Assembly (NCBI GenBank): GCA_947169285.1
Contig: CAMVPB010000005.1
Location: forward strand, 545 to 64,544
Length of the DNA stretch: 64,000 nt
DNA from: an uncultured bacterium
Lineage (GTDB): Bacteria > Bacillota_I > Bacilli_A > RF39 > UBA660
Direction: 5' to 3'
Shown here one piece after another: positions 2,652-18,653 of this stretch. Below the pieces are notes generated by a model that saw only the letters and a program-made list of their open reading frames with translations, had not been told where the DNA came from and did not search any database. How positions within the stretch are numbered: position 1 is the first letter of the stretch; each line of letters begins with the position of its first letter. The position numbers and the translations under genes were made by a program.

Positions 2652-2875
2652 TATACTCCCACAAAGAGCATGTTTTTTTACTTTTTTATATCAGGATAAG
2701 AGGTGCGGTATCGCAACACTAGAATTTAAAGATAAATTCTAGTGTTTTTGTGACACCACTTATTTTGCACTTGCAAAATTGCTCCCACAGAGCATTTTAG
2801 TTTAATGAATCTCTTTATTTAAAAGAAATAAATGCTCCCGTTTTTGATTTTTTTAGAAAATCTGTGGGAGCAAAT
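2652..2875 (+). repeat. Copy 1 of a ~220-bp interspersed structured noncoding repeat (the 220-bp repeat family)
   Basis: Aligns with 7316..7533 (inverted), 8566..8776 and 13237..13426. It contains the ctcccacaaagagc / gctcccacagagc / tctgtgggagc motifs and a hairpin acactagaattt...aaattctagtgt followed by a T-tract. Confidence 0.8.
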
Positions 2876-3107
2876 TTTCATTTAATTATCTCTTTTTTTA
2901 TCAATTTGAGAAATATTTAGACTAGTAAAAAACAAAAGATTGTGTTATATTGTATTTAGAAATGGTATTTATTAGTTGTTCTTTTAGATATAAGTGTTCA
3001 AAATAGGCTCTTGTATCGCACCATTATGGATTAAACAAACAACAAGTTTGTTTTTTTATTTGGTATAAAATTAACATTTTAGTAAATCATATTAGTGGAG
3101 GACTAAT

Positions 3108-3536
3108 ATGGGTGAAAATATAAATGCTTTAGATGAAATACACAAAGGATCATGCATGGGTTGTGACGCTATTAGTTTTGTTTTAGATAAAGTTGAAGAT
3201 AGAGAATTTAAAAGTGAACTTGAAAGTGAGTTTAATTTTTATAAATCTATTGAAAGTAGGGTAGACAAAATTTACTCAAAGTATGATGATGGGGAACCGC
3301 ATGAAACTGGAATTATGACTAAAGCTATGACTTGGTCAGGAATTGAAATGAAAACAATGAGTGATCATAGTAATTCTAAAATAGCTGAACTTTTGCTTCA
3401 AGGTGTTAACATGGGAATAATTGAGGGAAGAAGAATACTTAATAAAAAGAAAATAAATAACGAAGTAAGTAAAATAGTTTCAGAATATGTTGAAACACAA
3501 GAAAAATTTATGGAAACACTAAAAAGATATTTATAA
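3108..3536 (+). CDS. Hypothetical protein, 142 aa
   Basis: ORF with RBS (gtggaggact) upstream. No confident family assignment. Confidence 0.45.
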   Translation: MGENINALDEIHKGSCMGCDAISFVLDKVEDREFKSELESEFNFYKSIESRVDKIYSKYDDGEPHETGIMTKAMTWSGIEMKTMSDHSNSKIAELLLQGVNMGIIEGRRILNKKKINNEVSKIVSEYVETQEKFMETLKRYL

Positions 3537-3602: not shown

Positions 3603-3962
3603 ATGAAAAAAGGTTTTACATTAGTTGAAGTATTAGTAGTAATAGTGCTTTTGTCAATAATAATTGCAATTGCCATCCCTTCTATATCAAAAATTAGAGA
3701 GAATATAATTGACAAAGAAGAACAAACACAAATAAAAGAAATTAAATCAGCAGCATCTTTTTATGCAAGAGATGAAAAAAAATCAAACTGTTGTATAACT
3801 GTTTCTGAATTAGTATCAAAAGGATATTTAAAAGGTAATGAAGAAAGTAAAGTAATTAATCCTAAAACTCATGAAGAAATAAATGTTAAAATTTATATAG
3901 ATAACAACAAAAAAATAACATATGATTATAGTGAAACTTGTGGAAATTGTGAAAACAATTAA
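3603..3962 (+). CDS. Prepilin-type N-terminal cleavage/methylation domain protein (type IV pilin/pseudopilin-like), 119 aa
   Basis: N-terminus MKKGFTLVEVLVVIVLLSIIIAIAIPS is the classic G|FTLxE prepilin leader plus hydrophobic helix. It is a lone gene with no pilus assembly neighbours. Confidence 0.6.
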   Translation: MKKGFTLVEVLVVIVLLSIIIAIAIPSISKIRENIIDKEEQTQIKEIKSAASFYARDEKKSNCCITVSELVSKGYLKGNEESKVINPKTHEEINVKIYIDNNKKITYDYSETCGNCENN

Positions 3963-4016: not shown

Positions 4017-4092
4017 GGCGGTATTGGTGAAGTGGTAACACGGTAGATTGTGGCTCTATTATGCGTGGGTTCGATTCCCACATACCGCCCCA
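4017..4092 (+). tRNA. tRNA-His (anticodon GTG), with the extra G-1 and encoded CCA
   Basis: A cloverleaf was read by hand. Acceptor is GCGGTAT/ATACCGC with G-1 opposite C73. Anticodon stem is GTAGA/TCTAT and the loop TTGTGGC gives anticodon GTG. The T-arm is GTGGG-TTCGATT-CCCAC. Confidence 0.85.
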
Positions 4093-4248: not shown

Positions 4249-5166
4249 TTGGAGATGGAAACTATGTATAAGACAAATATTAATTTGAATTTATATAAAA
4301 CATTTTATGATGTAGCTAAATATGGTAGTATTTCAAAAGCAGCACAGTATGGATTTACATCACAACCTGCAATAAGTAAATCAATTAAAAAACTTGAAGA
4401 AGAACTTGGAGTTAAACTATTCTATAGAAATTTAAATGGAGTAGAATTAACAGATAAAGGTAAAGAACTATTATATTTTGTTGAAAAGTCATATAGTAAT
4501 TTAGTTATAGCAGAAAGAACTATGCTAGAAACTGAAAATCTTGAAAGAGGTAAACTATCTATTGGTATGCCATCTAATATTGGGTCATTTTACTTATTTG
4601 ATAAAATAATTAATTTTCATAAAAAGTATCCTAAAATAGAAATAACAATAATAACAGGTTCAACTTCACAATTAATTAATTTACTAGATTCTCACAAAGT
4701 TGATTTTGTTATAGATACTTCTCCAATTAATATAAAAAAGAATGATGAAATTAAAATAGCAAAGTTAGATGAAGTGAGTTATTGCTTTGTTGCTAAAAAT
4801 GAAAAATATAAGAATATAACTACATTAAGTGATTTAAAAGATAAACCTTTAATATTACCAATACCAGGAACAGCTAATAGAAAAGATTTAGATGAACTAT
4901 TAATAAATAAAAAAGTAGAAATAGAAAATGTTATAAATATACATACTAGTGAAATGATAATTTCAGCTGTGAAAAAAGATTTAGGAATAGGTTATATAAT
5001 TTATAATCTTATTGAAGATGATATTAAAAATAATGAATTAATAAAATTAGATATTAAAGAAGAATTACCGACTGTTCAAATAAATATTGTTTACAACAAA
5101 AATTTCTTAACAACTGCTCCTAAGAAATTTATTGAAGATTATATAGATAATAATTTCAAATTATAG
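4249..5166 (+). CDS. LysR-family transcriptional regulator (likely true start at the Met at 4264)
   Basis: N-terminal HTH region LNLYKTFYDVAKYGSISKAAQYGFTSQPAISKSIKKLEEELGVKLFYR is typical of LysR. The C-terminal substrate-binding portion is ~300 aa. A hairpin terminator follows at 5215..5250. Confidence 0.8.
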   Translation: MEMETMYKTNINLNLYKTFYDVAKYGSISKAAQYGFTSQPAISKSIKKLEEELGVKLFYRNLNGVELTDKGKELLYFVEKSYSNLVIAERTMLETENLERGKLSIGMPSNIGSFYLFDKIINFHKKYPKIEITIITGSTSQLINLLDSHKVDFVIDTSPINIKKNDEIKIAKLDEVSYCFVAKNEKYKNITTLSDLKDKPLILPIPGTANRKDLDELLINKKVEIENVINIHTSEMIISAVKKDLGIGYIIYNLIEDDIKNNELIKLDIKEELPTVQINIVYNKNFLTTAPKKFIEDYIDNNFKL

Positions 5167-5277
5167 AATCTATATTAAAAAGTTATACCTATAATTTAAA
5201 ATAATATAAAACATGAAAAACGGATATTTGTAAAAAATATCCGTTCATTTTATAATTTATTTGAAAGGAAGAAAATT

Positions 5278-6267
5278 ATGATTAAAAATTTAGGAACATT
5301 TAAAGATTTTTGCGATGGGACTTTAAAAACAGTTTTTGATGTTGGCAATAAAAAAATAATTGAAATGTCATTATTATTTAATAAAGCAGATAAAGATGTT
5401 GTATGTGTACCAACGCATCATTTCTGTAATTTAGGATGTAAGATGTGTCATTTAACTAATAAAGGATTAAATAAAAAAATGACTCCAATAAATTCAGAAG
5501 ACTTTATGGAATGTTTATATAAGTCACTAACAAAAGATAATATAAGGAAAACTGATAAAGATAAATTGCTCATATCATTTATGGGAGTGGGGGAACCTTT
5601 ATTAAATCTTAAATTAATAGAAGAAGTTTATAAAAATGAAAATATAATAAAAGAAAAATTGGGGTATAAAGATATAGGATATGCTATTGCGACTATGATG
5701 CCTAATGATAATATTTTAAAATTAAAAGAGATGGTTTGTAGATTAAATATACCACTTAAAGTTCATTTTTCATTGCATACTCCAATTGATAATGAAAGGC
5801 GTAATTTAATACCAAGCACAAACGTTTCTGTAGAGGATGCATTAGCCTATTTAGTTAATTATAGAAATAGTTTACAATCAAATAAAGAATTGATGGAAAA
5901 ATATATTAAATTACACACTACAAATGATCCGATTGAGATTCATTATACTTTAATCAAAGGAGTAAACGATCAAAAAGAGGAATTGGCTAAATTATGCGAA
6001 TTACTACATAAGTATAATATTCCAATTAAGTTTATTAGATTTAATCCAACACAAGATATGCAAAGAAGTGAAAATGAAGAAAAATGGGTCAATGAAATTT
6101 CTAATAGTGTGCCTGGACTTAGGATTAAAACATATTCTCCACCTGGTAAAGAAGTAGGTAGTTCTTGTGGTGAATTTACAAAACATTATTATCATGAAGA
6201 AATTGAAACTGAAGCTCAAAAAGAAGAATTTGAAAAATGGAAAGTAAAACATTTAGTGCTTGAATAG
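5278..6267 (+). CDS. Radical SAM enzyme of the RlmN/Cfr family (rRNA/tRNA adenine C2/C8 methyltransferase-like), 329 aa
   Basis: It has the CNLGCKMC CxxxCxxC cluster motif, an upstream Cys in VVCVPT and a C-terminal GSSCGEF. Blocks ISFMGVGEPLLNL, HFSLHTPIDNERRNLIP, IHYTLIKGVNDQ and IKFIRFNP parallel RlmN blocks, including both mechanistic cysteines. Confidence 0.7.
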   Translation: MIKNLGTFKDFCDGTLKTVFDVGNKKIIEMSLLFNKADKDVVCVPTHHFCNLGCKMCHLTNKGLNKKMTPINSEDFMECLYKSLTKDNIRKTDKDKLLISFMGVGEPLLNLKLIEEVYKNENIIKEKLGYKDIGYAIATMMPNDNILKLKEMVCRLNIPLKVHFSLHTPIDNERRNLIPSTNVSVEDALAYLVNYRNSLQSNKELMEKYIKLHTTNDPIEIHYTLIKGVNDQKEELAKLCELLHKYNIPIKFIRFNPTQDMQRSENEEKWVNEISNSVPGLRIKTYSPPGKEVGSSCGEFTKHYYHEEIETEAQKEEFEKWKVKHLVLE

Positions 6268-6281
6268 GAGGAAAAAATAAT

Positions 6282-6680
6282 ATGAATAAAGAATATATGG
6301 AAGTAAGAGAATTTCATAAAGCGTTTAATCATCCAGTTGCTGATAAGCCAACACAATTAACGTTTGAAAGGGCTAAAAAAAGATATTTGTGGATGCTAGA
6401 AGAAATAAATGAATTTATTGAAGCCGTTAAAAATAAAGATATAGTAGAACAAGCAGATGCAATGATAGATACAATTTATTTTGCCCTTGGAACTTTAGTG
6501 GAGATGGGAATTGAACCAGATGCTTTGTTTGAAATAGTTCAAAAAGCAAATATGAGTAAATTATTTCCTGATGGCAAACCTCATTATAATGAAATGGGAA
6601 AAGTAATTAAACCACAAAATTGGGAAGATCCGCATCCCAAATTAGAGCTAACCATAAAAAATATGAATAATTCTAATTAG
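6282..6680 (+). CDS. MazG-like all-alpha nucleoside triphosphate pyrophosphohydrolase family protein, 132 aa
   Basis: Acidic helix pattern LEEINEFIEAVKNKDIVEQADAMIDTIYFALG is typical of the MazG/HisE-like NTP-PPase fold. Confidence 0.5.
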   Translation: MNKEYMEVREFHKAFNHPVADKPTQLTFERAKKRYLWMLEEINEFIEAVKNKDIVEQADAMIDTIYFALGTLVEMGIEPDALFEIVQKANMSKLFPDGKPHYNEMGKVIKPQNWEDPHPKLELTIKNMNNSN

Positions 6681-6775
6681 AAAAGATATTATAAAAAAAT
6701 AAGATACTTTAATAAAAGATTTTAAGGATTGGTTTTATTTAAAAAGATACTAAAACATAGTATAATGTTATTGAG

Positions 6776-7297
6776 ATGAGCAATATGGAAACAATAGTAA
6801 TAAACAATAACAATTTGACTGATAAAGATATTAATGAATATGGTAAAAAAGTAAGAGCAGTTTTATTTGATGAAGAAAAAATATTAATATCTTGTTATGG
6901 TGGAGTTATATTATTGCCTGGTGGAAGTATTGATAAAAATGAAACTTCAGATCAAGCAATTGTAAGAGAATTAAAAGAAGAAACAGGTATTATATATAAT
7001 ATAAAAGACTTGAAAAAGTTACTAGTTGTTAAGCATTATCAACAAAATTATCTGACTAGAAATGAATCCATTAAAAATAGATTAATAAGCACTGAATATT
7101 ATATTGGAAAATATCAAGGAATTAATTTAGATGAAACTCACATGACAGATAAAGAATTAAAAGATAACTTTAATTTGAAATTAGTAAATATAAATGAATT
7201 ACAAAATTTATTAAATAAAATAACAAATAATCCAAGAAAAAATTTTTTTGATGAAGAAATAAGAGAAGTTATTCACACTTTAACTCTTAAAAAGTAA
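6776..7297 (+). CDS. NUDIX hydrolase, 173 aa
   Basis: Nudix box GGSIDKNETSDQAIVRELKEETGI fits Gx5Ex7REUxEExGU. Confidence 0.8.
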   Translation: MSNMETIVINNNNLTDKDINEYGKKVRAVLFDEEKILISCYGGVILLPGGSIDKNETSDQAIVRELKEETGIIYNIKDLKKLLVVKHYQQNYLTRNESIKNRLISTEYYIGKYQGINLDETHMTDKELKDNFNLKLVNINELQNLLNKITNNPRKNFFDEEIREVIHTLTLKK

Positions 7298-7315
7298 TAA
7301 CATTATAAAATAATA

Positions 7316-7533
7316 TGCTCCCACAGATTTTTTAAAAAAATCAAAAATGGGAGCATTTATTTCTTTTAAATAAAGAGAATAATTAAGTTAAAATGCTTTG
7401 TGGGAGCAATTTTGCAAGTGCAAAATAAGTGGTGTCATAAAAATATAGGTATTTCCTAGAAATATTTATATTTTGACACCTCATACTTATCCTGATATAA
7501 AAAAGTAATATTTTATGTATTCTATAGGAGCAA
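7316..7533 (-). repeat. Copy 2 of the 220-bp repeat family, inverted relative to copy 1
   Basis: The reverse complement aligns with 2652..2875 over about 190 bp (gacaccacttattttgcacttgcaaaattgctcccaca...aaatctgtgggagc). The internal hairpin has a different sequence but the same position and is followed by a T-tract. Confidence 0.8.
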
Positions 7534-7555
7534 AAAAATATTATTTAAAATCTTA

Positions 7556-7609
7556 TTGAAATTAATATTTGTTTTATATATAATATTAAGACATAAGGGA
7601 GGTTTTAGG
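7556..7609 (+). promoter_or_regulatory. Conserved promoter plus RBS module (TTGAAA-17-TATAAT ... acataagggagg), duplicated at 10518..10571
   Basis: Near-identical ~50-nt sequences precede two unrelated ORFs. The six-frame track reads them as a shared fake N-terminus MKLI.VL.IILRHKGGF. Confidence 0.6.
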
Positions 7610-8353
7610 ATGTTAAAATATTTGAATTATGATAATTATAACGTAGATGAAGAACTTTTAAAAATTGAAAATTGTGAAGAAGCAGAAATAGTATTAGAAC
7701 CAAGGAATAAAAAATGTTTATTTATTTTAGGGATGCTATTTGTAAATGGAGTTAAGATAAAGATCTTGAATGAAAATGATTTGAATCTTGAAGAAACAAA
7801 TAAATCATTTTCTATGATGCCATATGTATGGAGTAAAATAGGTGATAATAGTTTTCCAGCACCTGATTATTCTAATGTAAGAACCGAAATGGATAGAAGA
7901 GTAGAAAATGTTAAAAGAATGGGTTGTAAAGTAAATAGAATAGAAAACAATCCAATAGATAATAAAATATTTTTGATTTGTCCTGTAAGAAATGCTACTG
8001 AAGAACAAAGAAAATGGATTGAAAACTTTACTAAAGAGAAATATAACAACGGATATATAATTCATGCTCCACATCTTCATACAAGACAAACGGATTTGTT
8101 TGGCGGATATGCTATATGCAAACAAAATGCAGAGGCAGTAGCTACTTCTGAAGAAATTTACATATACTATGATCAATCAAGTACAGGTAGTGTATTTGAT
8201 TTAGGAGTGGCTTATGCATTACATAAACCATTAAAAGTATTAAATAAAGAAGAAATAGTTTTTAATGAAGATGATTTCATAGATAATATTGTAAAGACTT
8301 GGCCTTATAATTTAAAGACAAAAGTAAGAACTTTATCTAAAGAAAATATGTAA
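7610..8353 (+). CDS. Hypothetical protein with C-terminal nucleoside 2-deoxyribosyltransferase-like (NDT/Rcl-like) domain, ~247 aa from internal ATG
   Basis: Motifs KIFLICPVRNATEEQ and DQSSTGSVFDLGVAYALHKPLKV resemble the NDT-family GP-loop and DxGTxFExG(Y/A)A blocks. The start is placed after the conserved promoter/RBS module. Confidence 0.5.
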   Translation: MLKYLNYDNYNVDEELLKIENCEEAEIVLEPRNKKCLFILGMLFVNGVKIKILNENDLNLEETNKSFSMMPYVWSKIGDNSFPAPDYSNVRTEMDRRVENVKRMGCKVNRIENNPIDNKIFLICPVRNATEEQRKWIENFTKEKYNNGYIIHAPHLHTRQTDLFGGYAICKQNAEAVATSEEIYIYYDQSSTGSVFDLGVAYALHKPLKVLNKEEIVFNEDDFIDNIVKTWPYNLKTKVRTLSKENM

Positions 8354-8504
8354 AGAGAATCTGCACTTATGTTTTAAAAAATTGACTTTGCAAAATCAAA
8401 AAAATATGATAATATTAGTTCAGTTAGTAATATATACTACTATTTTAAAGCATTATCTTGTTGCTCTACACAATTAAGATACGTGCTATAATGTTATTAG
8501 CGAT

Positions 8505-8565
8505 TAGTTGTATTAGCAACTTTCTTTAAAAGCAATAAGTTTTAAATCATCTTATTTATTGCTTA
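8505..8565 (+). repeat. Short palindromic repeat (agttgtattagcaact ... gcaataag-N-cttatttattgc), second copy at 14497..14557
   Basis: Direct sequence similarity between the two loci. Both lie just downstream of a gene. Confidence 0.55.
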
Positions 8566-8776
8566 CTAAAGAGCGTGTTTTTTTAACTATTTATATGAGA
8601 GCTGCGGTATCACAACACTAGAATTTGTTTGTAAATTCTAGTGTTTTTGTGACATCAATCTTATTTTGCGCTTGCAAAATTGCTCCCTAGAAATAATGTA
8701 CTTAATATTTATTGCCTTAAATACTAATGAAAATTGTTCCCAAAATGTCATTTTTTTGAAAAATGCGAGGGAGTAA
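8566..8776 (+). repeat. Copy 3 of the 220-bp repeat family
   Basis: Shares aaagagcgtgttttttt, gcggtatcacaacactagaattt...aaattctagtgtttttgtgaca, ttgcgcttgcaaaattgctccc and a gagggag right end with copies 1 and 4. Confidence 0.75.
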
Positions 8777-8875
8777 CTTTTTAACTGCTTTCCAAAATAT
8801 TTGACTTATTTTTTTGTTTACAATCATAATAAATATACTTATAATATTTTTGTAAAAAGGTGTATTATGCAAAAA

Positions 8876-8970
8876 GATAATATGCTAAAGCGCTAAATAA
8901 AGAAATTATTTATTACACTGATTTAAAAGAAGAAAATTTAGAAACTCAAATTCGAAAAAAATTAGTCTAG
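8876..8970 (+). pseudogene. Remnant 3' end of an NDT-like gene (YAKALNKEIIYYTDLKEENLETQIRKKLV*), duplicate of 11545..11640
   Basis: About 90% nucleotide identity to the 3' end of the frameshifted NDT-like gene at 11292..11637. The following attttaaagagtgttatttgatattaaaggag junction is shared as well. Confidence 0.6.
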
Positions 8971-9008
8971 ATTTTAAAGAGTGTTATTTGATATTAAAGG
9001 AGAAAATT

Positions 9009-9752
9009 ATGATGAATGTAAACAAAGAATTAATTGAGTATGTAGAAAATAATATAAAACCCATATATGTAAACAACAATTATGCTGGTCATGGTTGGGA
9101 ACATATTCAAAATGTAATAAGTCGTAGTTTTGAGTTAATGGAAAAATTCAAGTTAGAAATTAACCCTAATATGGTTTATGTTATAGCAGCATATCATGAT
9201 ATTGGTTATAAAGAAAATCCTGAAAATCATGAACAAGTATCAAGTGAAATGTTTTTACAAAATAAAGAAATTCAACATTTTTTTAGTGAAGAAGAAAATA
9301 GAATAATTGCTGAAGCTATAGTAGATCATAGAGCAAGTTTAGAATATGAAGCAAGAAGTGTCTACGGAAAATTAGTTTCCTCTGCTGATAGAGCTATTGA
9401 TGTTAATAATATGTTAGAAAGGTCAATTTCTTTTCAATATGAAAAGCATAAATTAGAAAATCCAACGATTCAAGATATTATTGAATATTCTTATAAGAAA
9501 CTATCAAGTAAATATGGAAATGGTGGATATGCTAAAATGTATTTTCAAGATGATAAATATTTAGAATATTTAAAAAAAGTGAATTTATTATTTTCAGACA
9601 AAGAAGAATTTATTAAAGCAGAGATGAATATTATTGCTAATAATTCACAATTATTACAAAAAATATATGTGAATCCAGAATTGAGAACATTATTAGAAGA
9701 TAAAGAAAAGAACATAAGTACTAAAAGAGTATATATAAAAAATAAAAAATGA
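9009..9752 (+). CDS. HD-domain metal-dependent phosphohydrolase, ~247 aa
   Basis: H...HD signature (GHGWEHIQNV ... VIAAYHDIGY). Start ATG at 9009 after RBS aaaggag; the track's TTG start at 8988 is less likely. Confidence 0.65.
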   Translation: MMNVNKELIEYVENNIKPIYVNNNYAGHGWEHIQNVISRSFELMEKFKLEINPNMVYVIAAYHDIGYKENPENHEQVSSEMFLQNKEIQHFFSEEENRIIAEAIVDHRASLEYEARSVYGKLVSSADRAIDVNNMLERSISFQYEKHKLENPTIQDIIEYSYKKLSSKYGNGGYAKMYFQDDKYLEYLKKVNLLFSDKEEFIKAEMNIIANNSQLLQKIYVNPELRTLLEDKEKNISTKRVYIKNKK

Positions 9753-9798
9753 AAACATAAATTTATTGATTATGTTAGGGTAAATATAGGAGGATTTT

Positions 9799-10503
9799 AT
9801 GAAAAAAATAACAGAGTTATTTATGGCTTATAAAAACGATTTTGCTAATAGTAATTTAAAAGATAATGAATTAATAGAGTTTGTAATGCCTTTTAACTTT
9901 TCTGATTTAAGCGATGTTGTTAATGGAAATATATTTTTAAAAAGCTATAATCAAAAAATATCAATAAAAGAATCATTAGATTTATTAGATTTATCAATAA
10001 AAAATAATAATAGGATAAGAGTGTGGACTAGTCATGTTGACCCTGATTATTATTTGTTTTTATTATTTATATGTTTTTATGTAAAGAATAAGATTGAATG
10101 TTTAGAAGTCTTTTATTCTGATGAATACAAAAGTGAATGTACAAGTACCGGAATGATGACTTCAAAAGAATTAGATAAATTATCATTGATGGGTCATAAA
10201 ATAGAAAAAAATGAAATAGAAGAATATGCTAATAAATGGGAGTCTTTAATTCAAGATGGAAGTAAAATACATATTTTCGAGAATAATGAATTAATTGGTG
10301 TGCCATATGATTATATTTATGAACAAATAATAGATTTCATAAAAAAAGAAAACAAAGTTAAAGTTGTTGAAATAGTTTTTGAATTTTCAAAAAAATATAA
10401 TATTGATGTTGATTATTTAATAAAGCAACTAATAGAAGATAAAAAGATTAAAGTATTAGAAAGCAATGAAATATTTTCTAAAATCATTGTTGGATTAAGT
10501 TAA
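9799..10503 (+). CDS. Hypothetical protein, 234 aa
   Basis: ORF with RBS (taggagga). No recognisable motif. Confidence 0.45.
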   Translation: MKKITELFMAYKNDFANSNLKDNELIEFVMPFNFSDLSDVVNGNIFLKSYNQKISIKESLDLLDLSIKNNNRIRVWTSHVDPDYYLFLLFICFYVKNKIECLEVFYSDEYKSECTSTGMMTSKELDKLSLMGHKIEKNEIEEYANKWESLIQDGSKIHIFENNELIGVPYDYIYEQIIDFIKKENKVKVVEIVFEFSKKYNIDVDYLIKQLIEDKKIKVLESNEIFSKIIVGLS

Positions 10504-10571
10504 TCTTAAATGAAATTGTATTGAAATTAATAAAAGTGTTGTGTATAATATTGAGACATAAGGGAGGATTT

Positions 10572-11189
10572 ATGGATTTTATTAAAAAAAATGAGTCTTG
10601 TGAAAAATTTTATTCTGTTGACTATGATAAAGAGAAGTTAAATGAAATTTTAGAAAAGTTAAAAAACTATAATTATACGGCAATTGGTAAAGGCGAGATG
10701 GGTGGAGTAACTAATTGGCCTGCTACAGAGAAAAATATAAAAAGAAGAGTTACATCTTTCTTTAATGCTTGTATGCATGACCAAAATGCAACATTACATC
10801 CAGAGACAATAGTGCGTCATGATGATGACTATGTTTCATATGAATATTCTTATAATAAATTACCGGATCTATATGATTATATTGATTTAATTGTAAATAC
10901 ACAAAACCCTTTTAAACATAAAAGATTGTTTAAGAATTTTAGTGATGCTTATATTTGCTTTCACTGGGATCAAATAGTATTAGAAGGATTGCTAAATTAT
11001 GCAAATTCCCCAGAATTAACAAATCATAATTCTATAGAAAATAGTGAATCAAGTAAAGAAGAGTATGATTATAAAGGATTAAATGAATTATATATAGAGA
11101 CATTAAAATGTTTCAATTTCAATTTAATAGCAGTCAAAGAATATTTAAAAGAACCAAAATCAGTGAATGTTTTATCTTTAAAAAAATAA
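10572..11189 (+). CDS. Hypothetical protein, ~205 aa (start at internal ATG after the conserved promoter/RBS module)
   Basis: Preceded by the same TTGAAA-17-TATAAT ... taagggagg module as 7610. No recognisable family. Confidence 0.45.
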   Translation: MDFIKKNESCEKFYSVDYDKEKLNEILEKLKNYNYTAIGKGEMGGVTNWPATEKNIKRRVTSFFNACMHDQNATLHPETIVRHDDDYVSYEYSYNKLPDLYDYIDLIVNTQNPFKHKRLFKNFSDAYICFHWDQIVLEGLLNYANSPELTNHNSIENSESSKEEYDYKGLNELYIETLKCFNFNLIAVKEYLKEPKSVNVLSLKK

Positions 11190-11291
11190 ATTATTTGGTC
11201 ATAGTATAAAACAAAAACTATGGCTTTTTAATTGTTATATTAAAATTAGAATCATGATATAATAAAAAAGTAATTTGAAAGTTGGTGTGAA

Positions 11292-11637
11292 ATGAAAATA
11301 ATAACAGTTTGTGGAAGTTTAAGATTTTTTAAAGAAATGATGGAAATAACTGAAAAGAAGGAATTAGAGGGTAATTGTATGTTAGTTCCAATTTATAATC
11401 CTTTAAAACCAAATAAAGATAATTATAGTGAGAAAGGATGCACTTATGTTGGATAAGATGCATAAAGAAAGAATTAAACTATCTGATGCTATTTTAGTTG
11501 TTAATGTTAATAACTATATTGGTGATAGTACTAAAAGTGAAATAGAATATGCTAAATCATTAAATAAAGAAATTATTTATTACACTGATTTAAAAGAAGA
11601 AAGCTTAGAAACTAAAATTCGAAAAAAATTAGTTTAA
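11292..11637 (+). pseudogene. Frameshifted nucleoside 2-deoxyribosyltransferase-like gene (two overlapping ORFs 11292..11457 and 11428..11637)
   Basis: N-terminal part MKIITVCGSLRFFKEM... and C-terminal part LSDAILVVNVNNYIGDSTKSEIEYAKSLNKEIIYY together fit the NDT-family pattern but lie in different frames. Confidence 0.5.
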
Positions 11638-11677
11638 ATTTTAAAGAGAGTTATTTGATATTAAAGGAGGAATTGAT

Positions 11678-12277
11678 ATGAAATTAATTTTAACATCTAG
11701 AGTGTTCGGTGATGCTATTGCAACTGAAAAAGTATTAAATGAATTAAATATGGATATTTCAAAAGCAAAAATACTTTTAATAGCAACTCCAAGATTGCCT
11801 TATGAAGGGCCAGAAAGTTCTTTTGAAAGTTTAGTTTATTGGGGATTTAAAGAAGAAAACATCGTAATATTTGATCATAATAAAGCAGAAGAATATTGTA
11901 ATTTAGATATAGATATTATTTATGTTACAGGAGGAAACACTTTTACAGGTTTAAAATTACTTAAAGAATGCAGATTTGATAAAGAAATTATTAAATATAT
12001 AAATAATGGCGTAATCTATTTAGGAAAAAGTGCTGGTTCACATATAGTATCTAAAAATATTGAACATGTTATAGGATTTGATCCAAATGAAGTAGGGTTA
12101 ACTGACTTTGAAGGGTTAGGATTATTTAATGGAATATTAGTTTGTCATTATAGTGATGAAAGAAAACCATGTTATGATAGATTATTATCAGAAAAAAAGT
12201 ATCCTGTGTATACTTTAACTGACCAAGATATGATAGTGTATGATGATAGTTTAGTAAAAAAATTAAAAAAGTATTAA
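11678..12277 (+). CDS. Peptidase S51 (dipeptidase E-like) family protein, 199 aa
   Basis: IIYVTGGNTFTGLKLL ... GVIYLGKSAGSHIV matches the S51 GGNTF / SAGS serine motif. Confidence 0.55.
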   Translation: MKLILTSRVFGDAIATEKVLNELNMDISKAKILLIATPRLPYEGPESSFESLVYWGFKEENIVIFDHNKAEEYCNLDIDIIYVTGGNTFTGLKLLKECRFDKEIIKYINNGVIYLGKSAGSHIVSKNIEHVIGFDPNEVGLTDFEGLGLFNGILVCHYSDERKPCYDRLLSEKKYPVYTLTDQDMIVYDDSLVKKLKKY

Positions 12278-12465: not shown

Positions 12466-12732
12466 ATGGTATTTATGGTAAATATTATTAAGCAAGAAGT
12501 TGTTATTGAAGAATCATTAAAGAAGAAGTTAAAACTAATATGTGAGTTTTCAAATACTACTTTAAAAATAATAAATGGTAGTATAAGAAAAATTGAAAAT
12601 AATAATCAAATTAGAGAAATAACTGAAGAAAATAGGAATGGATTCGATTTAATAGAAAAAGCAGAAAAAGAAATAAAATATATGGAAGGCCACAAAAAAC
12701 GCTTACAAAATAAATTATTAGTCATAGTTTAA
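12466..12732 (+). CDS. Hypothetical protein, 88 aa
   Basis: ORF with upstream RBS (aggatgg). Lysine/glutamate-rich with a coiled-coil-like composition. Confidence 0.4.
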   Translation: MVFMVNIIKQEVVIEESLKKKLKLICEFSNTTLKIINGSIRKIENNNQIREITEENRNGFDLIEKAEKEIKYMEGHKKRLQNKLLVIV

Positions 12733-12827: not shown

Positions 12828-13163
12828 ATGAGAACTCGTGTACCTGATAATCCACATCCAGTACCAATGCCGGATATGGATAATTTTAGCGAAGAAGAAA
12901 TAGATGATTTGTTAATAGACAATTTTTTAAAGAAATTAGAAGTTCATTCACATACGCCTAGAAATCCGCATCCAGTACCAATGCCGGATATGGATAATTT
13001 TAGCGAAGAAGAAATAGATGATTTGTTAATAGACAATTTTTTAAAGAAATTAGAAGTTCATTCACATGCGCCTAGAAATCCGCATCCAGTACCAATGCCA
13101 TCAATAGAAACAGATTATCAATCAAAAAAAGTTAAAAGAAGAATTAGAAGATTACTTAAATAG
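12828..13163 (+). CDS. Tandem-repeat protein (repeated 38-aa unit RNPHPVPMPDMDNFSEEEIDDLLIDNFLKKLEVHSH.P), 111 aa
   Basis: ORF with RBS (aaggagga). It contains a perfect 114-bp tandem duplication. Confidence 0.5.
   Translation: MRTRVPDNPHPVPMPDMDNFSEEEIDDLLIDNFLKKLEVHSHTPRNPHPVPMPDMDNFSEEEIDDLLIDNFLKKLEVHSHAPRNPHPVPMPSIETDYQSKKVKRRIRRLLK
12852..13103 (+). repeat. Tandem direct repeat, 114-bp unit x ~2.2, near-identical copies
   Basis: Units start at 12852, 12966 and 13080. Copies are identical except for single bases (acgcct versus gcgcct). Confidence 0.85.
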
Positions 13164-13236
13164 TTGTATGTTTTGACATGTAGCAAGGTTTGAAAAAAAT
13201 CTTGCTTTTGTTTGGGACTTAGATGATCAAAAATTT

Positions 13237-13426
13237 TTGCTCCCTCGAAAAGCATTTTTTATGCTATTTTTAATATCAGGATAAGAGGTGGTATCACATT
13301 ACTAAGATTTACCCATAAATCCTAATAATTTGTGACTCCAAACTTATATTTTATGTTTTTTTGACTCAAACGCTAACAACTTTTACTCCCAAAATGACTT
13401 TTTTTTGAAAAAGTTGAGGGAGCAAA
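13237..13426 (+). repeat. Copy 4 of the 220-bp repeat family (most diverged)
   Basis: ttgctccctcgaaaagcatttttt ... atatcaggataagaggtg ... a hairpin, then ttgtgac ... gttgagggagcaaaa. The end motifs co-vary (ccctcgaa/ttgaggg here versus cccacaaag/ctgtggg in copy 1). Confidence 0.7.
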
Positions 13427-13560: not shown

Positions 13561-14400
13561 ATGAGTGAAATTAATAAAGTTTTAAATGATGAATCAAAAA
13601 ATGATAAAGAACTAATTAAAGAGCTTAGTGTTTACGTTAAAAATCATAAGAATAAAAAGTTGCCAATAAATAAAGAATTTGTTAAAGGTATAATTGATAT
13701 ATCTTTGAGAAATAGTGAAGTTGACTTTAAAAAAATAGAATTTGTTAATGACATGAGTATTGGAGCTTCTTGGTTACCTGAAAGTATGGGGTTAGAATTT
13801 AATCTTACAGGAGCATTAAAATATGCTAGATTATTGAAAGATTATAGGTTTCATTCGAAAGTTGGTGATAACGATATATTTTTATATTATTCAGTTATAG
13901 AATTTGTAATTCATGAACTCACTCACGCAAGACAATATTACGTTAATTTGATAGAGAAAAACGAGGTTTATAATTCTTGTGAAGAATTAATTGAAAAAAA
14001 ATATGATGTATACCGAGTAAACCACGATAAAGTATTGATAGAAAGATATGCGCATTTAAGAGGTCATACGCTTGCATACGAGGTATTATCTTATATTTAT
14101 TCTATGGAGCAAATTCAAGAATTTAGAAGAATAATATATGTTTATTTGTTAATGGGATACAAAGTAAATCATAACGGGGATACTATTTCTGCTTTAGATA
14201 AATACAATGAATTAATGAAAGAAAACTCATTGCCAATAGTTAATATTGATTCTAATGATGATATGACATTATATGATAGACTTTATTTAGGACTTCCAAT
14301 AAGTACATTAGAATATCATAGATTAAAGCTCTTATATGCAGATATTTGGCATAATGATGACAAAACTCAAAGAGTAAAAACATTAATTAATAAATTATAA
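13561..14400 (+). CDS. Hypothetical protein with HExxH motif (IHELTHARQ), possible zinc metallopeptidase-like, 279 aa
   Basis: ORF with RBS (gagggggttt) and an HELTH motif. No further family assignment. Confidence 0.4.
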   Translation: MSEINKVLNDESKNDKELIKELSVYVKNHKNKKLPINKEFVKGIIDISLRNSEVDFKKIEFVNDMSIGASWLPESMGLEFNLTGALKYARLLKDYRFHSKVGDNDIFLYYSVIEFVIHELTHARQYYVNLIEKNEVYNSCEELIEKKYDVYRVNHDKVLIERYAHLRGHTLAYEVLSYIYSMEQIQEFRRIIYVYLLMGYKVNHNGDTISALDKYNELMKENSLPIVNIDSNDDMTLYDRLYLGLPISTLEYHRLKLLYADIWHNDDKTQRVKTLINKL

Positions 14401-14496
14401 AAGGATTTTAAAAAAGATATTGATTAACACAAACCAATATTTTTTCTTTTGAAAAGACTTTGACATTTATATAATTTATGATATTATGTTTATAGA

Positions 14497-14557
14497 AATT
14501 AGTTGTATTAACAACTTTCTTTAAAGATGGTAAGTTTTAAATCATCTTATTTGTTGC
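14497..14557 (+). repeat. Second copy of the short palindromic repeat seen at 8505..8565
   Basis: ttagttgtattaacaactttctttaaa...taagttttaaatcatcttatttgttgc, compared with 8505..8565. Confidence 0.55.
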
Positions 14558-16637: not shown

Positions 16638-17117
16638 ATGAAGGTAATGCATAATTTAAAACCTATTTATAATGAAAATTCTAAAGTATTAATACTTGGC
16701 TCACTTCCTAGCGTTATTTCTCGTGAAAACAATTTTTATTATGCAAATAAAACGAATAGATTTTGGAAAATATTAGAAAGTATTTTTAATATTGAATTAA
16801 ATACAAATGAAGAAAAAGATAAATTTTTATTAAATAATTATATTGCTTTGTGGGATGTAATAGCTTCTTGTGATATAAAAGGTTCAAGTGATTTGTCTAT
16901 TAAAAATGTAAAAGCTAATAATATAGATTTGATTATTAATAAGAGTTCTATAAAACATATTTTTTGTACTGGCAAAGTTGCATATAATTTATTCAATAAA
17001 CACATAAAAACTAATATACCTGTTAGTTATTTATCAAGCCCATCAAGTGCAAATGCTAAGAAAAATTTAAATGATTTAATAAATGAATATAAAGTTATTA
17101 AAAAGTATTTAAAATAA
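16638..17117 (+). CDS. Mug/TDG-like member of the uracil-DNA glycosylase superfamily (possibly DNA-deoxyinosine glycosylase), 159 aa
   Basis: LILGSLPSVIS ... NRFWKIL ... SYLSSPSSAN parallel the Mug motifs GINPGL...NRFW...LPNPSGL. Confidence 0.55.
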   Translation: MKVMHNLKPIYNENSKVLILGSLPSVISRENNFYYANKTNRFWKILESIFNIELNTNEEKDKFLLNNYIALWDVIASCDIKGSSDLSIKNVKANNIDLIINKSSIKHIFCTGKVAYNLFNKHIKTNIPVSYLSSPSSANAKKNLNDLINEYKVIKKYLK

Positions 17118-17818: not shown

Positions 17819-17906
17819 TAATTTTAAAAAGATATTAGATTAATTTCTAATATCTTTTTTGCAATAATTTTTGTTTTTAAGTAAATAATAATATTAGGTG
17901 ATTTTA

Positions 17907-18653
17907 GTGGCTAATATACGCAGTAATATTTCTTTTGCTCTTGTAGATATTCCAGTTATCATGAATCCAATTATTAAAAACAATGATGCATCTTTTAATC
18001 AAATTCATGAGAAGTGTGGTAAAAGAGTATCTTATATAAAATATTGTCCTCATTGTAAAAAGAATATTAAAGAAAGTGAAATAATTAAAGGTTATCAATA
18101 TGAAGATAATGAATATGTTGTTTTTGATAAAGAAGAATTAAATAAGTTAAAACCTGAAAATGATCATGAAATAGAGATAATATCTTTTATTAGTATTAAA
18201 GATATAGATCCATATTATTTTGAAAAAAGTTATGTACTTGGTAGTACCGGAAAAGGTAAAAGTTATAATTTATTTTGTGAAGCTTTAAAGAAAAGTAAGT
18301 TAGTAGCTCTTTGTAAAACTGTTTTAAATGGTAAATTTTATTATTGCATTTTAAGATTTAATAAAAATAATATTATAATGACTACTTTATATTTTGAAGA
18401 AGAAATAAATATAGATAATGAAAAAAAGAAAGATATAAATATTAATAACAAAGAATTAAATCTTGCTATGAAATTAATTGATTCATTGAAAGGTAAATTT
18501 GAACCATCTAAATATAAAGATGAATATCAGGATAACATTAAAGATGCAATTAATTTAAAACTAGATGGTAAAACAATTAAAGGTAAAAAGAAAAAAGATA
18601 AAAAGCATATTAATGATTTAATGGAAGCTTTAGAAAAGAGTTTAAAAAAATGA
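17907..18653 (+). CDS. ku: Ku protein (NHEJ DNA end-binding); GTG start after RBS aggtga
   Basis: N-terminus ANIRSNISFALVDIPV matches the bacterial Ku start (SISFGLVNIPV). Length about 250 aa, with a lysine-rich C-terminal tail. Confidence 0.8.
   Translation: MANIRSNISFALVDIPVIMNPIIKNNDASFNQIHEKCGKRVSYIKYCPHCKKNIKESEIIKGYQYEDNEYVVFDKEELNKLKPENDHEIEIISFISIKDIDPYYFEKSYVLGSTGKGKSYNLFCEALKKSKLVALCKTVLNGKFYYCILRFNKNNIIMTTLYFEEEINIDNEKKKDININNKELNLAMKLIDSLKGKFEPSKYKDEYQDNIKDAINLKLDGKTIKGKKKKDKKHINDLMEALEKSLKK

Follow-up and report, generated by a model that had tools for sequence, protein, structure and literature searches.

We analyzed a 64,000-nucleotide stretch of DNA (hereafter, the window) from an uncultured bacterium of the RF39 lineage (contig CAMVPB010000005.1 of GenBank assembly GCA_947169285.1, positions 545 to 64,544 of the forward strand), in which a mobile-looking island carries a run of genes for nucleotide-processing enzymes at 5278 to 12277. 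The conserved unit in this region is a pair of genes coding for a LysR-type regulator (4249 to 5166; NCBIfam and Pfam LysR) and for a radical S-adenosylmethionine (SAM) protein (5278 to 6267), called rSAM below. The latter is a class A radical-SAM methylase, uncharacterized to date, that is widespread, in part mobile, and found in the context of deoxypyrimidine nucleotides. We tentatively propose, at a little short of an even chance, that rSAM is a LysR-regulated C-methylase of a deoxypyrimidine monophosphate, which would most simply convert dUMP to dTMP, and that the other genes of the island are cargo. Its substrate, its product and the role of LysR are deduced from genomic context. A first-pass annotation made from the DNA letters had taken 5278 to 12277 to be a single module, possibly directed against phages. 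The nine-gene cluster is not a conserved system, and it is not one to catalogue as a candidate defense system.

The first-pass annotation had described rSAM as RlmN/Cfr-like, which agrees with our profile searches, alignments and structural model. The best NCBIfam matches were RlmN (TIGR00048, 95 bits) and Cfr (NF000424, 75 bits; TIGR04432, 69 bits), below the cut-offs of 290 bits for the former and 530 to 550 bits for the latter. The AlphaFold2 model of rSAM (pLDDT 93.7) had RlmN and Cfr at ranks 1 to 11 of a Foldseek search of the Protein Data Bank (PDB), with E values of 3e-16 to 9e-11 and TM-scores of 0.59 to 0.68 across these structures; the best fit was to RlmN (0.68), followed by Cfr. 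Sequence identity to the two families is approximately 21 to 27%. The profile alignment spans RlmN residues 89 to 358 and pairs dvvCVPthhfCnlgCkmC and SSCGef of rSAM with atlCVSSQVGCALECKFC and AACGQL of RlmN. The CxxxCxxC motif (C50-x3-C54-x2-C57), which aligns with CALECKFC of RlmN, is invariant in 44 sequences down to 27% identity. C43 and C297, equivalent to RlmN C118 and C355, are at least 90% conserved in those 44 diverse sequences and invariant in the close family. Since all five mechanistic cysteines of RlmN and Cfr are kept, rSAM probably retains their two-SAM "methyl synthase" mechanism of methyl transfer.

At its N terminus, the protein differs from RlmN. The matches start at position 78 of the 355 of the TIGR00048 model, corresponding to RlmN residue 89 or so, and only about 11 residues precede that point, indicating that the N-terminal RlmN_N domain is missing. 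The canonical RlmN of a related genome does have this domain (PF21016), which contacts RNA in the RlmN-tRNA structure. Thus, rSAM has the fold, the CxxxCxxC motif and both mechanistic cysteines of RlmN and Cfr, but it lacks the RNA-binding domain, is paired with LysR, forms fusions with deaminase and NDT domains and is followed by dUTP pyrophosphatases. Its substrate is probably not RNA. A methyltransferase of RNA carried by mobile elements, either a Cfr-like resistance determinant or an RlmN paralogue with coincidental nucleotide-enzyme neighbors, would accord with RlmN and Cfr being the closest families by sequence and fold and with the location of rSAM, in some genomes, between rplL plus an rRNA-methyltransferase-like gene and rpoB. 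It would also suit a mobilizable element that bears rSAM in several human gut metagenomes (L001 to L006, described below), as such elements often carry resistance genes. We nevertheless consider it improbable, because of the absence of the N-terminal domain that both RlmN and Cfr possess and because two independent dCMP deaminase fusions and one NDT fusion would be hard to explain. The scores far under the RlmN and Cfr cut-offs also speak against it, as does the LysR control, which is unusual for genes of the cfr/erm type.

Our neighborhood sample comprised 63 genome loci and 80 metagenome loci (143 in total) centered on rSAM relatives, together with contexts from exact look-ups; loci are designated by L numbers and individual proteins by P numbers. 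The rSAM family was detected in 679 clusters, mostly from uncultured gut Bacilli, "Tenericutes" and CAG-type Clostridia, with a few from DPANN archaea. We found no description of it in the literature searched and no specific NCBIfam model, and no cluster had a name given by its source. The proteins of the 143 loci are 55 to 98% identical and are frequently encoded in core contexts (rplL-rpoB, engB), which fits a metabolic enzyme under purifying selection better than an arms-race defense gene. No member of the close family was found in a scan of IMG/VR; wider relatives of 285 to 300 residues include phage proteins of phrog_27142.

A LysR gene, coding for proteins of 50 to 98% identity, is located upstream of rSAM in 47 of 69 loci, in most cases as its immediate neighbor, as well as in 24 of the 80 loci from metagenomes. 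In the LysR-rSAM spacer of the window, the dyad TTATACCTATAA (5183 to 5194, + strand) is a candidate LysR box. Of 40 distinct LysR-rSAM spacers, 18 contained a box of the type TTATA-N2-5-(A/T)ATAA, compared with 4.4 in shuffles, and 11 of the 18 box-bearing spacers have it at an identical offset, 16 nt past the LysR stop codon. Farther downstream, a promoter-like site (5228 to 5256) precedes rSAM, and a palindrome that may form a hairpin (5219 to 5245, + strand; terminator-like match) overlaps its -35 region and ends immediately ahead of TATAAT. The hairpin occupies the same place in most loci, and its arms covary from one locus to another, e.g., CGGATATTT/AAATATCCG and AAGGTATTT/AATACCTT. The box and the hairpin before the -10 element are consistent with control of the rSAM operon by LysR, which would bind the spacer.

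The link to deoxypyrimidine metabolism comes from fusions and from neighboring genes. Many rSAM clusters have a C-terminal dCMP deaminase domain, as seen in 7 genome loci and 20 metagenome loci, and the match of this domain to human DCTD (E 1e-57) identifies it as a true dCMP deaminase. In a distant relative, P0263, the deaminase is N-terminal, which represents an independent fusion, and another distant relative, P0134, is fused to an NDT domain. In the window, a gene for a MazG-like all-alpha NTP pyrophosphohydrolase (6282 to 6680) begins 14 nt past the rSAM stop codon. The same slot right after rSAM is occupied by a MazG-like gene in only a few other lineages (the L001 to L006 element, L009, L010 and L091 to L093). 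A classical trimeric dUTPase is encoded downstream of an rSAM-deaminase fusion in L016 (fusion stop at 11482; open reading frame [ORF] start at 11621, with similarity from 11588), and in L057 such a fusion is followed by a thymidylate-kinase-like gene that overlaps its stop codon. Three unrelated dUMP-producing enzymes and one enzyme predicted to phosphorylate dTMP are thus attached to rSAM, which is the neighborhood expected of a thymidylate synthase. As separate observations on uracil-DNA glycosylases (UDG), a UDG-family gene (8004 to 8690) lies directly upstream of the LysR-rSAM-deaminase-dUTPase genes of L016, and a UDG-superfamily gene is found at 16638 to 17117 of the window, approximately 10 kb downstream of the module.

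The MazG-like protein was confidently assigned to its family (PF01503, 82.2 bits against a cut-off of 21.3; phrog_671, E 3e-38). Its closest solved structures are the uncharacterized 3NL9 (E 3e-30) and DR2231 of Deinococcus radiodurans (E 7e-8, over residues 47 to 116 of 132 only). DR2231, a dUTP pyrophosphatase, is thus its nearest characterized relative, and the two proteins share the PF01503 family, yet that of the window is far closer to 3NL9. By this kinship, the MazG-like enzyme may be specific for dUTP. DR2231 itself is active exclusively on dUTP according to the title of a paper cited in PMC10014863, and it has been described as promiscuous, also cleaving dUTP (PMC5122711). The next gene codes for a NUDIX hydrolase (6776 to 7297; PF00293, 41.2 bits against a cut-off of 21.1) whose translation has an intact Nudix box, GGSIDKNETSDQAIVRELKEETGI (G-SIDKN-E-TSDQAIV-RELKEETGI).

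In the mechanism that we propose, LysR would switch on an operon with rSAM as its first gene, continuing in the window with the genes for the MazG-like and NUDIX proteins. Using a [4Fe-4S] cluster, a methyl-carrying cysteine and a resolving cysteine, rSAM would C-methylate a 2'-deoxypyrimidine 5'-monophosphate at the expense of two SAM molecules, as in RlmN. In the simplest version, dUMP would be converted to dTMP; alternatively, dCMP would be methylated to 5-methyl-dCMP, which dCMP deaminase would then turn into dTMP. The substrate would be supplied here by the MazG-like enzyme, from dUTP, and elsewhere by the classical dUTPase or the fused dCMP deaminase, and the product would be passed on to the thymidylate-kinase-like enzyme in one locus (L057). 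The net result would be a folate-independent thymidylate route switched by LysR.

The proposed net reaction, dUMP to dTMP, is that of ThyA and ThyX, and the typical neighbors, namely, dCMP deaminase, dUTPase and thymidylate kinase, are also the same. However, there is no kinship in sequence or fold, as rSAM had no match to the ThyA (PF00303) or ThyX (PF02511) Pfam profiles, and the methyl donor would be SAM instead of methylene-tetrahydrofolate for the predicted activity of rSAM. As the resemblance is a functional inference, we did not file rSAM as a member of the thymidylate synthases. We also ran tblastn with Escherichia coli ThyA, Mycobacterium tuberculosis ThyX, Tdk and FolA as queries, and within the 6- to 10-kb flanks that this search covers, as opposed to whole genomes, the only hit was the ThyA-like gene of L057/L148. 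A further step, which we regard as doubtful, would be that this RlmN-like family without the N-terminal domain makes up a third, folate-independent class of thymidylate synthases, found in gut Bacilli with small genomes and in a few DPANN archaea and also present on LysR-controlled mobilizable elements.

Several observations weigh against the conversion of dUMP to dTMP by rSAM. Most rSAM loci have no nucleotide-enzyme neighbor at all. Known class A enzymes methylate C2 or C8 of adenine in RNA, and to our knowledge the methylation of a pyrimidine is without precedent in this class; moreover, a nucleophilic methylene radical might favor C6 of uracil over C5. In L057 (3477 to 16154; also L148 and L149), from a Lachnospiraceae metagenome-assembled genome (MAG), the rSAM-deaminase fusion is surrounded by a cluster that resembles those for thymidine hypermodification. 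It encodes a 5-hydroxymethyldeoxyuridine (5-hmdU) DNA kinase (E 3e-107), a ThyA-like enzyme, two Tmk-like kinases, a formyltransferase-like protein, NTP_transf_5, AMP-ligases and carrier proteins, and in such a setting the product might differ from dTMP. Phage Tunturi_5 (L070) encodes a relative of rSAM with 31% identity, gp170, and its genome also has ThyX, dCMP deaminase, dUTPase and Tmk. Hence, at least distant relatives do not stand in for thymidylate synthase, and in view of the ThyX of this complete genome we rejected that simple role for the distant phage relatives. The genes of the phage relatives (L070, L088 and L081), one of which is fused to NDT, belong to modules for replication and recombination that also encode UvsX/RecA, SbcCD, a topoisomerase and a clamp loader; UvsX/RecA and SbcCD as neighbors could equally indicate an action on DNA.

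Some of these points are accounted for if rSAM makes a non-canonical methylated deoxypyrimidine nucleotide, such as 5-methyl-dCMP kept as such, 6-methyl-dUMP or a methylated derivative of 5-hmdUMP, for DNA modification or for a nucleoside natural product. The enzymes that supply dUMP would have the same role as in our proposal. The L057/L148 fusion, set among hypermodification-like genes, agrees with this idea, as do the phage relatives in replication modules, one of them alongside ThyX, and the fusion to an NDT domain, which calls to mind MilB and other N-glycosidases that liberate modified bases. Against it, in most members of the family the gene stands by itself in a core bacterial context and its surroundings offer no dedicated kinase, polymerase or glycosylase, and a small-genome bacterium would need extra specialized genes, none of which recur. 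We judge this outcome unlikely, if still worth keeping in mind. In the modification of deoxypyrimidines by phages, dCMP deaminase and dUTPase/dCTPase act together with a hydroxymethylase homologous to ThyA and a deoxynucleoside monophosphate kinase (PMC8989533). The logic is the same as that proposed here, with dUMP being supplied to a base-modifying enzyme whose product is then phosphorylated, and L057 does combine the 5-hmdU DNA kinase with the ThyA-like enzyme. The differences are that the modifier would be a radical-SAM methylase and that the genes are mostly found on bacterial chromosomes, under LysR, rather than in phages.

If rSAM does methylate a deoxypyrimidine monophosphate, class A radical-SAM chemistry would be extended from RNA adenines, on which all the methylases of this class known to us act, to free deoxypyrimidine nucleotides. 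Were the product to be dTMP, the enzyme would be a SAM-dependent, folate-independent thymidylate synthase. This would bear on the source of thymidylate in reduced-genome gut bacteria and DPANN archaea, on the response of gut microbes to antifolates and fluoropyrimidines, and on the genes reported as "missing" in metabolic reconstructions of uncultured lineages. Mobilizable copies of such a synthase might make a host less dependent on folate or thymidine, or weaken the effect of antifolate drugs; as several human gut metagenomes contain a mobilizable element with a version of the module, its spread could have practical consequences.

The remainder of the 5278 to 12277 region does not form a module with rSAM. 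The first-pass annotation correctly noted that several nucleotide-acting families are located together in a mobile island. However, among the 143 loci, the genes for the two-domain NDT-like protein (NDT1), the DUF3658 protein, the protein at 10572 to 11189 and the S51 peptidase accompany rSAM in none, that for the HD protein in two, and that for the NUDIX protein in one, at a distance of 9 kb. Nor were the genes found to have housekeeping orthologues in syntenic positions, the cluster being syntenic nowhere. Homologues of the HD protein adjoin LysR-rSAM in L022 and are encoded 5.6 kb away in L049. Homologues of a 142-residue protein encoded at 3108 to 3536, which has no Pfam or PHROG match, adjoin HD-LysR-rSAM in L022 and are found downstream of rSAM in L047 and L142, and an intact 103-residue homologue of the small NDT-like gene (NDTb) is directly upstream of rSAM in L052. 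The loose recurrence of these three genes near rSAM suggests a shared nucleotide theme, not a fixed pathway. NDT1, the HD protein, DUF3658, the protein at 10572 to 11189, NDTb and S51 are best seen as independent salvage, house-cleaning or unrelated cargo.

A search of PADLOC-DB v2 returned no system-specific match over most of any protein. The partial matches were pVip (residues 46 to 118), PDC-S07 on the Nudix box, Cas3-HD, the ThsB tail and the radical-SAM core. NCBIfam has no specific family for rSAM, NDT1, DUF3658 or the protein at 10572 to 11189, so the earlier impression that no named system was matched holds. In an anti-phage module, as suggested by the first-pass annotation, these enzymes would deplete or alter nucleotides during infection. 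The mobile-island location, nucleotide-acting families that are known from defense systems, the weak PADLOC matches to pVip (E 0.0017), PDC-S07 (on the Nudix box only) and the TIR-like ThsB (E 2e-4), and the existence of phage homologues of rSAM, MazG and HD could all be cited in its favor. Since the genes of the cluster are not conserved together and no PADLOC model matched beyond a generic domain core, this function is left without positive support. There is, in addition, no sensor or effector architecture, and the rSAM family is highly conserved, often in core genome contexts, with no close member in IMG/VR. We therefore regard an anti-phage role as very improbable.

A general toolkit for house-cleaning and salvage is another way to view the island. 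The MazG, NUDIX and HD proteins would sanitize (d)NTP pools, the NDT-like proteins would exchange or release bases, and rSAM would be mere cargo without a pathway link. Three families of the (d)NTP-pyrophosphohydrolase type are indeed encoded within 3.5 kb, each of the genes is set off by a promoter-like cassette or a repeat boundary of its own, NDT1 occurs alone elsewhere, and a dependence on salvage is plausible for the hosts, small-genome gut Bacilli. What this toolkit does not explain is the repeated attachment of dUMP-producing enzymes to rSAM, by fusion or in the next slot, and the 14-nt spacing between rSAM and the MazG-like gene. We give it a small probability and retain, tentatively, the proposal of a LysR-regulated deoxypyrimidine methylase.

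The mobile character of the island, already suspected in the first-pass annotation, was borne out by a large serine recombinase, a tRNA-His, repeats limited to 2.6 to 14.6 kb and core genes beyond them. The best explanation for the region from position 1 to about 14.6 kb is a mosaic integrative island made of cassettes that recombine at island-specific repeats. The recombinase gene (1 to 1644) is truncated by the left edge of the window and its frame is open from the first base; the protein matches Pfam Recombinase, Zn_ribbon_recom and the C-terminal part of Resolvase. At the nucleotide level, it is 74% identical to the large serine recombinase gene of the mobilizable LysR-rSAM-MazG element of L001 to L005. 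An 88-residue protein encoded at 12466 to 12732 has 48 to 57% identical copies beside the recombinase genes of L001 to L005 and L068, its homologues thus flanking that element.

The element of L001 to L006, from human gut metagenomes, carries LysR-rSAM, a 38-residue ORF and a gene for a 235-residue MazG-domain protein next to a tRNA-Cys, with a resolvase, a Mob_Pre relaxase and a large serine recombinase in its flanks. Its rSAM-module protein was indexed in 53 collection blocks, from which 24 contigs were read. It is a circulating mobilizable element. Its gene set (large serine recombinase, resolvase, Mob/Pre relaxase) is the same as what we take to be that of Tn4451, and we liken it on this basis to the Tn4451/Tn4453 type of mobilizable transposons. 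The window recombinase and the 88-residue protein are homologous to parts of the element. The window differs from this type in showing no relaxase and in having extra cassettes and island-specific repeats instead.

Several repeat families are confined to positions 2.6 to 14.6 kb of the window and to one related MAG locus, L007, with copies at 2673 to 2900 (- strand), 7288 to 7510 (+ strand), 8578 to 8790, 13230 to 13425 and 14479 to 14557. They include palindromic terminator-like hairpins (AACACTAGAATTT...AAATTCTAGTGTT), for instance, in the left arm at 2673 to 2900. A 167-nt inverted pair (2734 to 2900 and 7288 to 7454; 86% complementary) brackets the genes from 3108 through that of the NUDIX hydrolase, the last one ahead of the island repeat. 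A 71-nt cassette consisting of a promoter (TTGAAA-17-TATAAT) and a ribosome-binding site (RBS) is found in two 80% identical copies (7537 to 7607, + strand, and 10502 to 10572) before two unrelated genes, and related copies occur in L007; a promoter scan of the first copy gave 11/12. A duplication of 138 nt (8873 to 9010 and 11540 to 11677; 90% identical), which takes in the 3' end of the small NDT-like gene together with a spacer and an RBS, is found ahead of the HD gene as well as the S51 gene and marks a cassette-swap junction. We also considered integron-like cassettes, given the same-direction cassettes and the repeats, and set the idea aside. An integrase of the IntI type was not seen, and the repeats resemble promoter or terminator segments.

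The related loci show how the LysR-rSAM unit has been rearranged. In L007, L089 and L090, the LysR-rSAM stretch is 97 to 98% identical to that of the window and lacks the MazG-like and NUDIX genes. In L007, an island repeat of the 7288 to 7510 type is found directly 3' of the rSAM stop codon, which indicates that these two genes are an insertion/deletion difference. The 97% identical stretch common to the window and L007 begins at 4087, at the 3' end of the tRNA-His gene (GTG anticodon, 4018 to 4092, + strand; Rfam tRNA, 64 bits; also predicted by ARAGORN), and this start suggests that the LysR-rSAM unit was integrated or recombined in association with the tRNA end. Rfam detected only tRNA, and no riboswitch, over the first 17 kb of the window.

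The domain assignments of the MazG-like, NUDIX, HD and S51 proteins by the first-pass annotation were all confirmed by Pfam profiles above their cut-offs. The HD-domain phosphohydrolase (9009 to 9752, alternative start at 8988) matched PF01966 with 30.9 bits against a cut-off of 22 and phrog_3921 with an E value of 1e-27, with weak PDB matches to Lin1889 and 5DQV. The PepE-like S51 peptidase (11678 to 12277) matched PF03575 with 84.3 bits against a cut-off of 23.9, and its translation has a GKSAG serine motif.

Two NDT-like proteins and one NDT-like pseudogene had initially been reported. NDT1 (7610 to 8353; 247 residues, two domains) was confirmed by weak sequence similarity and by structure, and the frameshifted NDTb was confirmed as well; we found no second intact NDT-like protein. 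NDT1 scored 19.3 bits against PF05014 (E 0.0012), under the cut-off of 28.8, and some of its relatives have a precomputed match to this family. In its model (pLDDT 88), the C-terminal domain adopts the NDT/DNPH1 fold. Of the 50 PDB matches listed for this domain, 49, including all of the top 38, correspond to NDT, DNPH1/Rcl or an unnamed Enterococcus faecalis protein, with Foldseek probabilities of 0.93 to 1.0 and E values of about 0.01 to 0.25; 5vaf_B, at rank 39, is the single outlier. As described in the first-pass annotation, this domain is fused to an N-terminal region without a match, approximately 110 residues that found no counterpart in the structure search of the model. NDT1 shares the fold of NDT and DNPH1 (Rcl) in its C-terminal domain and differs from them in having the extra N-terminal domain, a score under the Pfam cut-off and an aspartate at the presumed position of the nucleophilic glutamate. 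That residue, Asp197 in SVFDLG, is invariant, and its placement at the Glu nucleophile position of NDT was made by eye.

The NDT1 family consists of stand-alone, well-conserved proteins of about 245 residues with 63 to 89% identity. Its relatives (74 to 89% identity) are encoded among mur genes or CAT/acetyltransferase cassettes, as well as in arrays of unrelated small genes. As a side observation, a locus with an NDT1-YunG fusion (L079) has a long same-strand array of small genes coding for an acetyltransferase, the YunG fusion, DUF3592, TfoX_N, MazE, DUF3781 and a metallo-beta-lactamase fold protein, with a cassette-like layout as in the window island.

NDTb (11292 to 11637) is a small gene with a frameshift near 11440. 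The rejoined protein matched nearly the whole PF05014 profile (19.2 bits, E 0.0014, under the cut-off of 28.8) and keeps a Glu motif, GDSTKSEIEYA, of the type employed by NDT and DNPH1 enzymes. A stop-interrupted remnant of the 3' end of an NDTb-type gene, about 100 bp in length, is located at 8873 to 8970 (+ strand) within the 138-nt duplication. A profile comparison of NDT1 with NDTb was not significant. We also considered the ORF at 10572 to 11189 as a paralogue of NDT1 and rejected it after a direct comparison, which revealed no relationship. The ORFs at 10521 to 11189 and 7556 to 8353 are alike only at their spurious N termini (MKLI..RHKGGF), because the 71-nt promoter/RBS cassette is duplicated. 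The protein encoded at 10572 to 11189, immediately after the second copy of this cassette, had no match in Pfam, NCBIfam, PADLOC or PHROGs. The DUF3658 protein (9799 to 10503; PF12395) has no nucleotide-related evidence.

The window has a G+C content of about 25%. Nearly all its genes are on the + strand, as are those of the cluster, whose positions in the first-pass annotation were confirmed, and the genes at 1 to 1644, 3108 to 3536, 3603 to 3962, 4249 to 5166 and 12466 to 12732. Upstream of LysR, a gene at 3603 to 3962 codes for a pseudopilin-like protein with an N-terminal methylation motif (PF07963). Homologues of 48 to 50% identity are encoded 0.6 to 3 kb 3' of rSAM-dCMP-deaminase fusions (at about 12.5 to 13 kb in L056, L058 and L059; also L157 to L168), a proximity that recalls the location of comEB in a competence operon of Bacillus.

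An ORF at 12828 to 13163 contains a 114-bp tandem duplication (12849 to 12962 and 12963 to 13076; 98% identical) that gives rise to a repeated proline- and acid-rich peptide without a family match. A 279-residue protein with an HExxH-like motif, HELTH, also without a family match, is encoded at 13561 to 14400, on the right side of the island. Chromosomal genes follow from approximately 16.6 kb on, coding for UDG, a MIP channel, Ku/LigD, phosphoketolase, AspRS, SerRS and acetate kinase. Among them, a Ku gene followed by separate genes for the LigD ligase and for the LigD phosphoesterase/primase-polymerase (17898 to 20879) makes up a split non-homologous end-joining system in this gut-type genome of 25% G+C.

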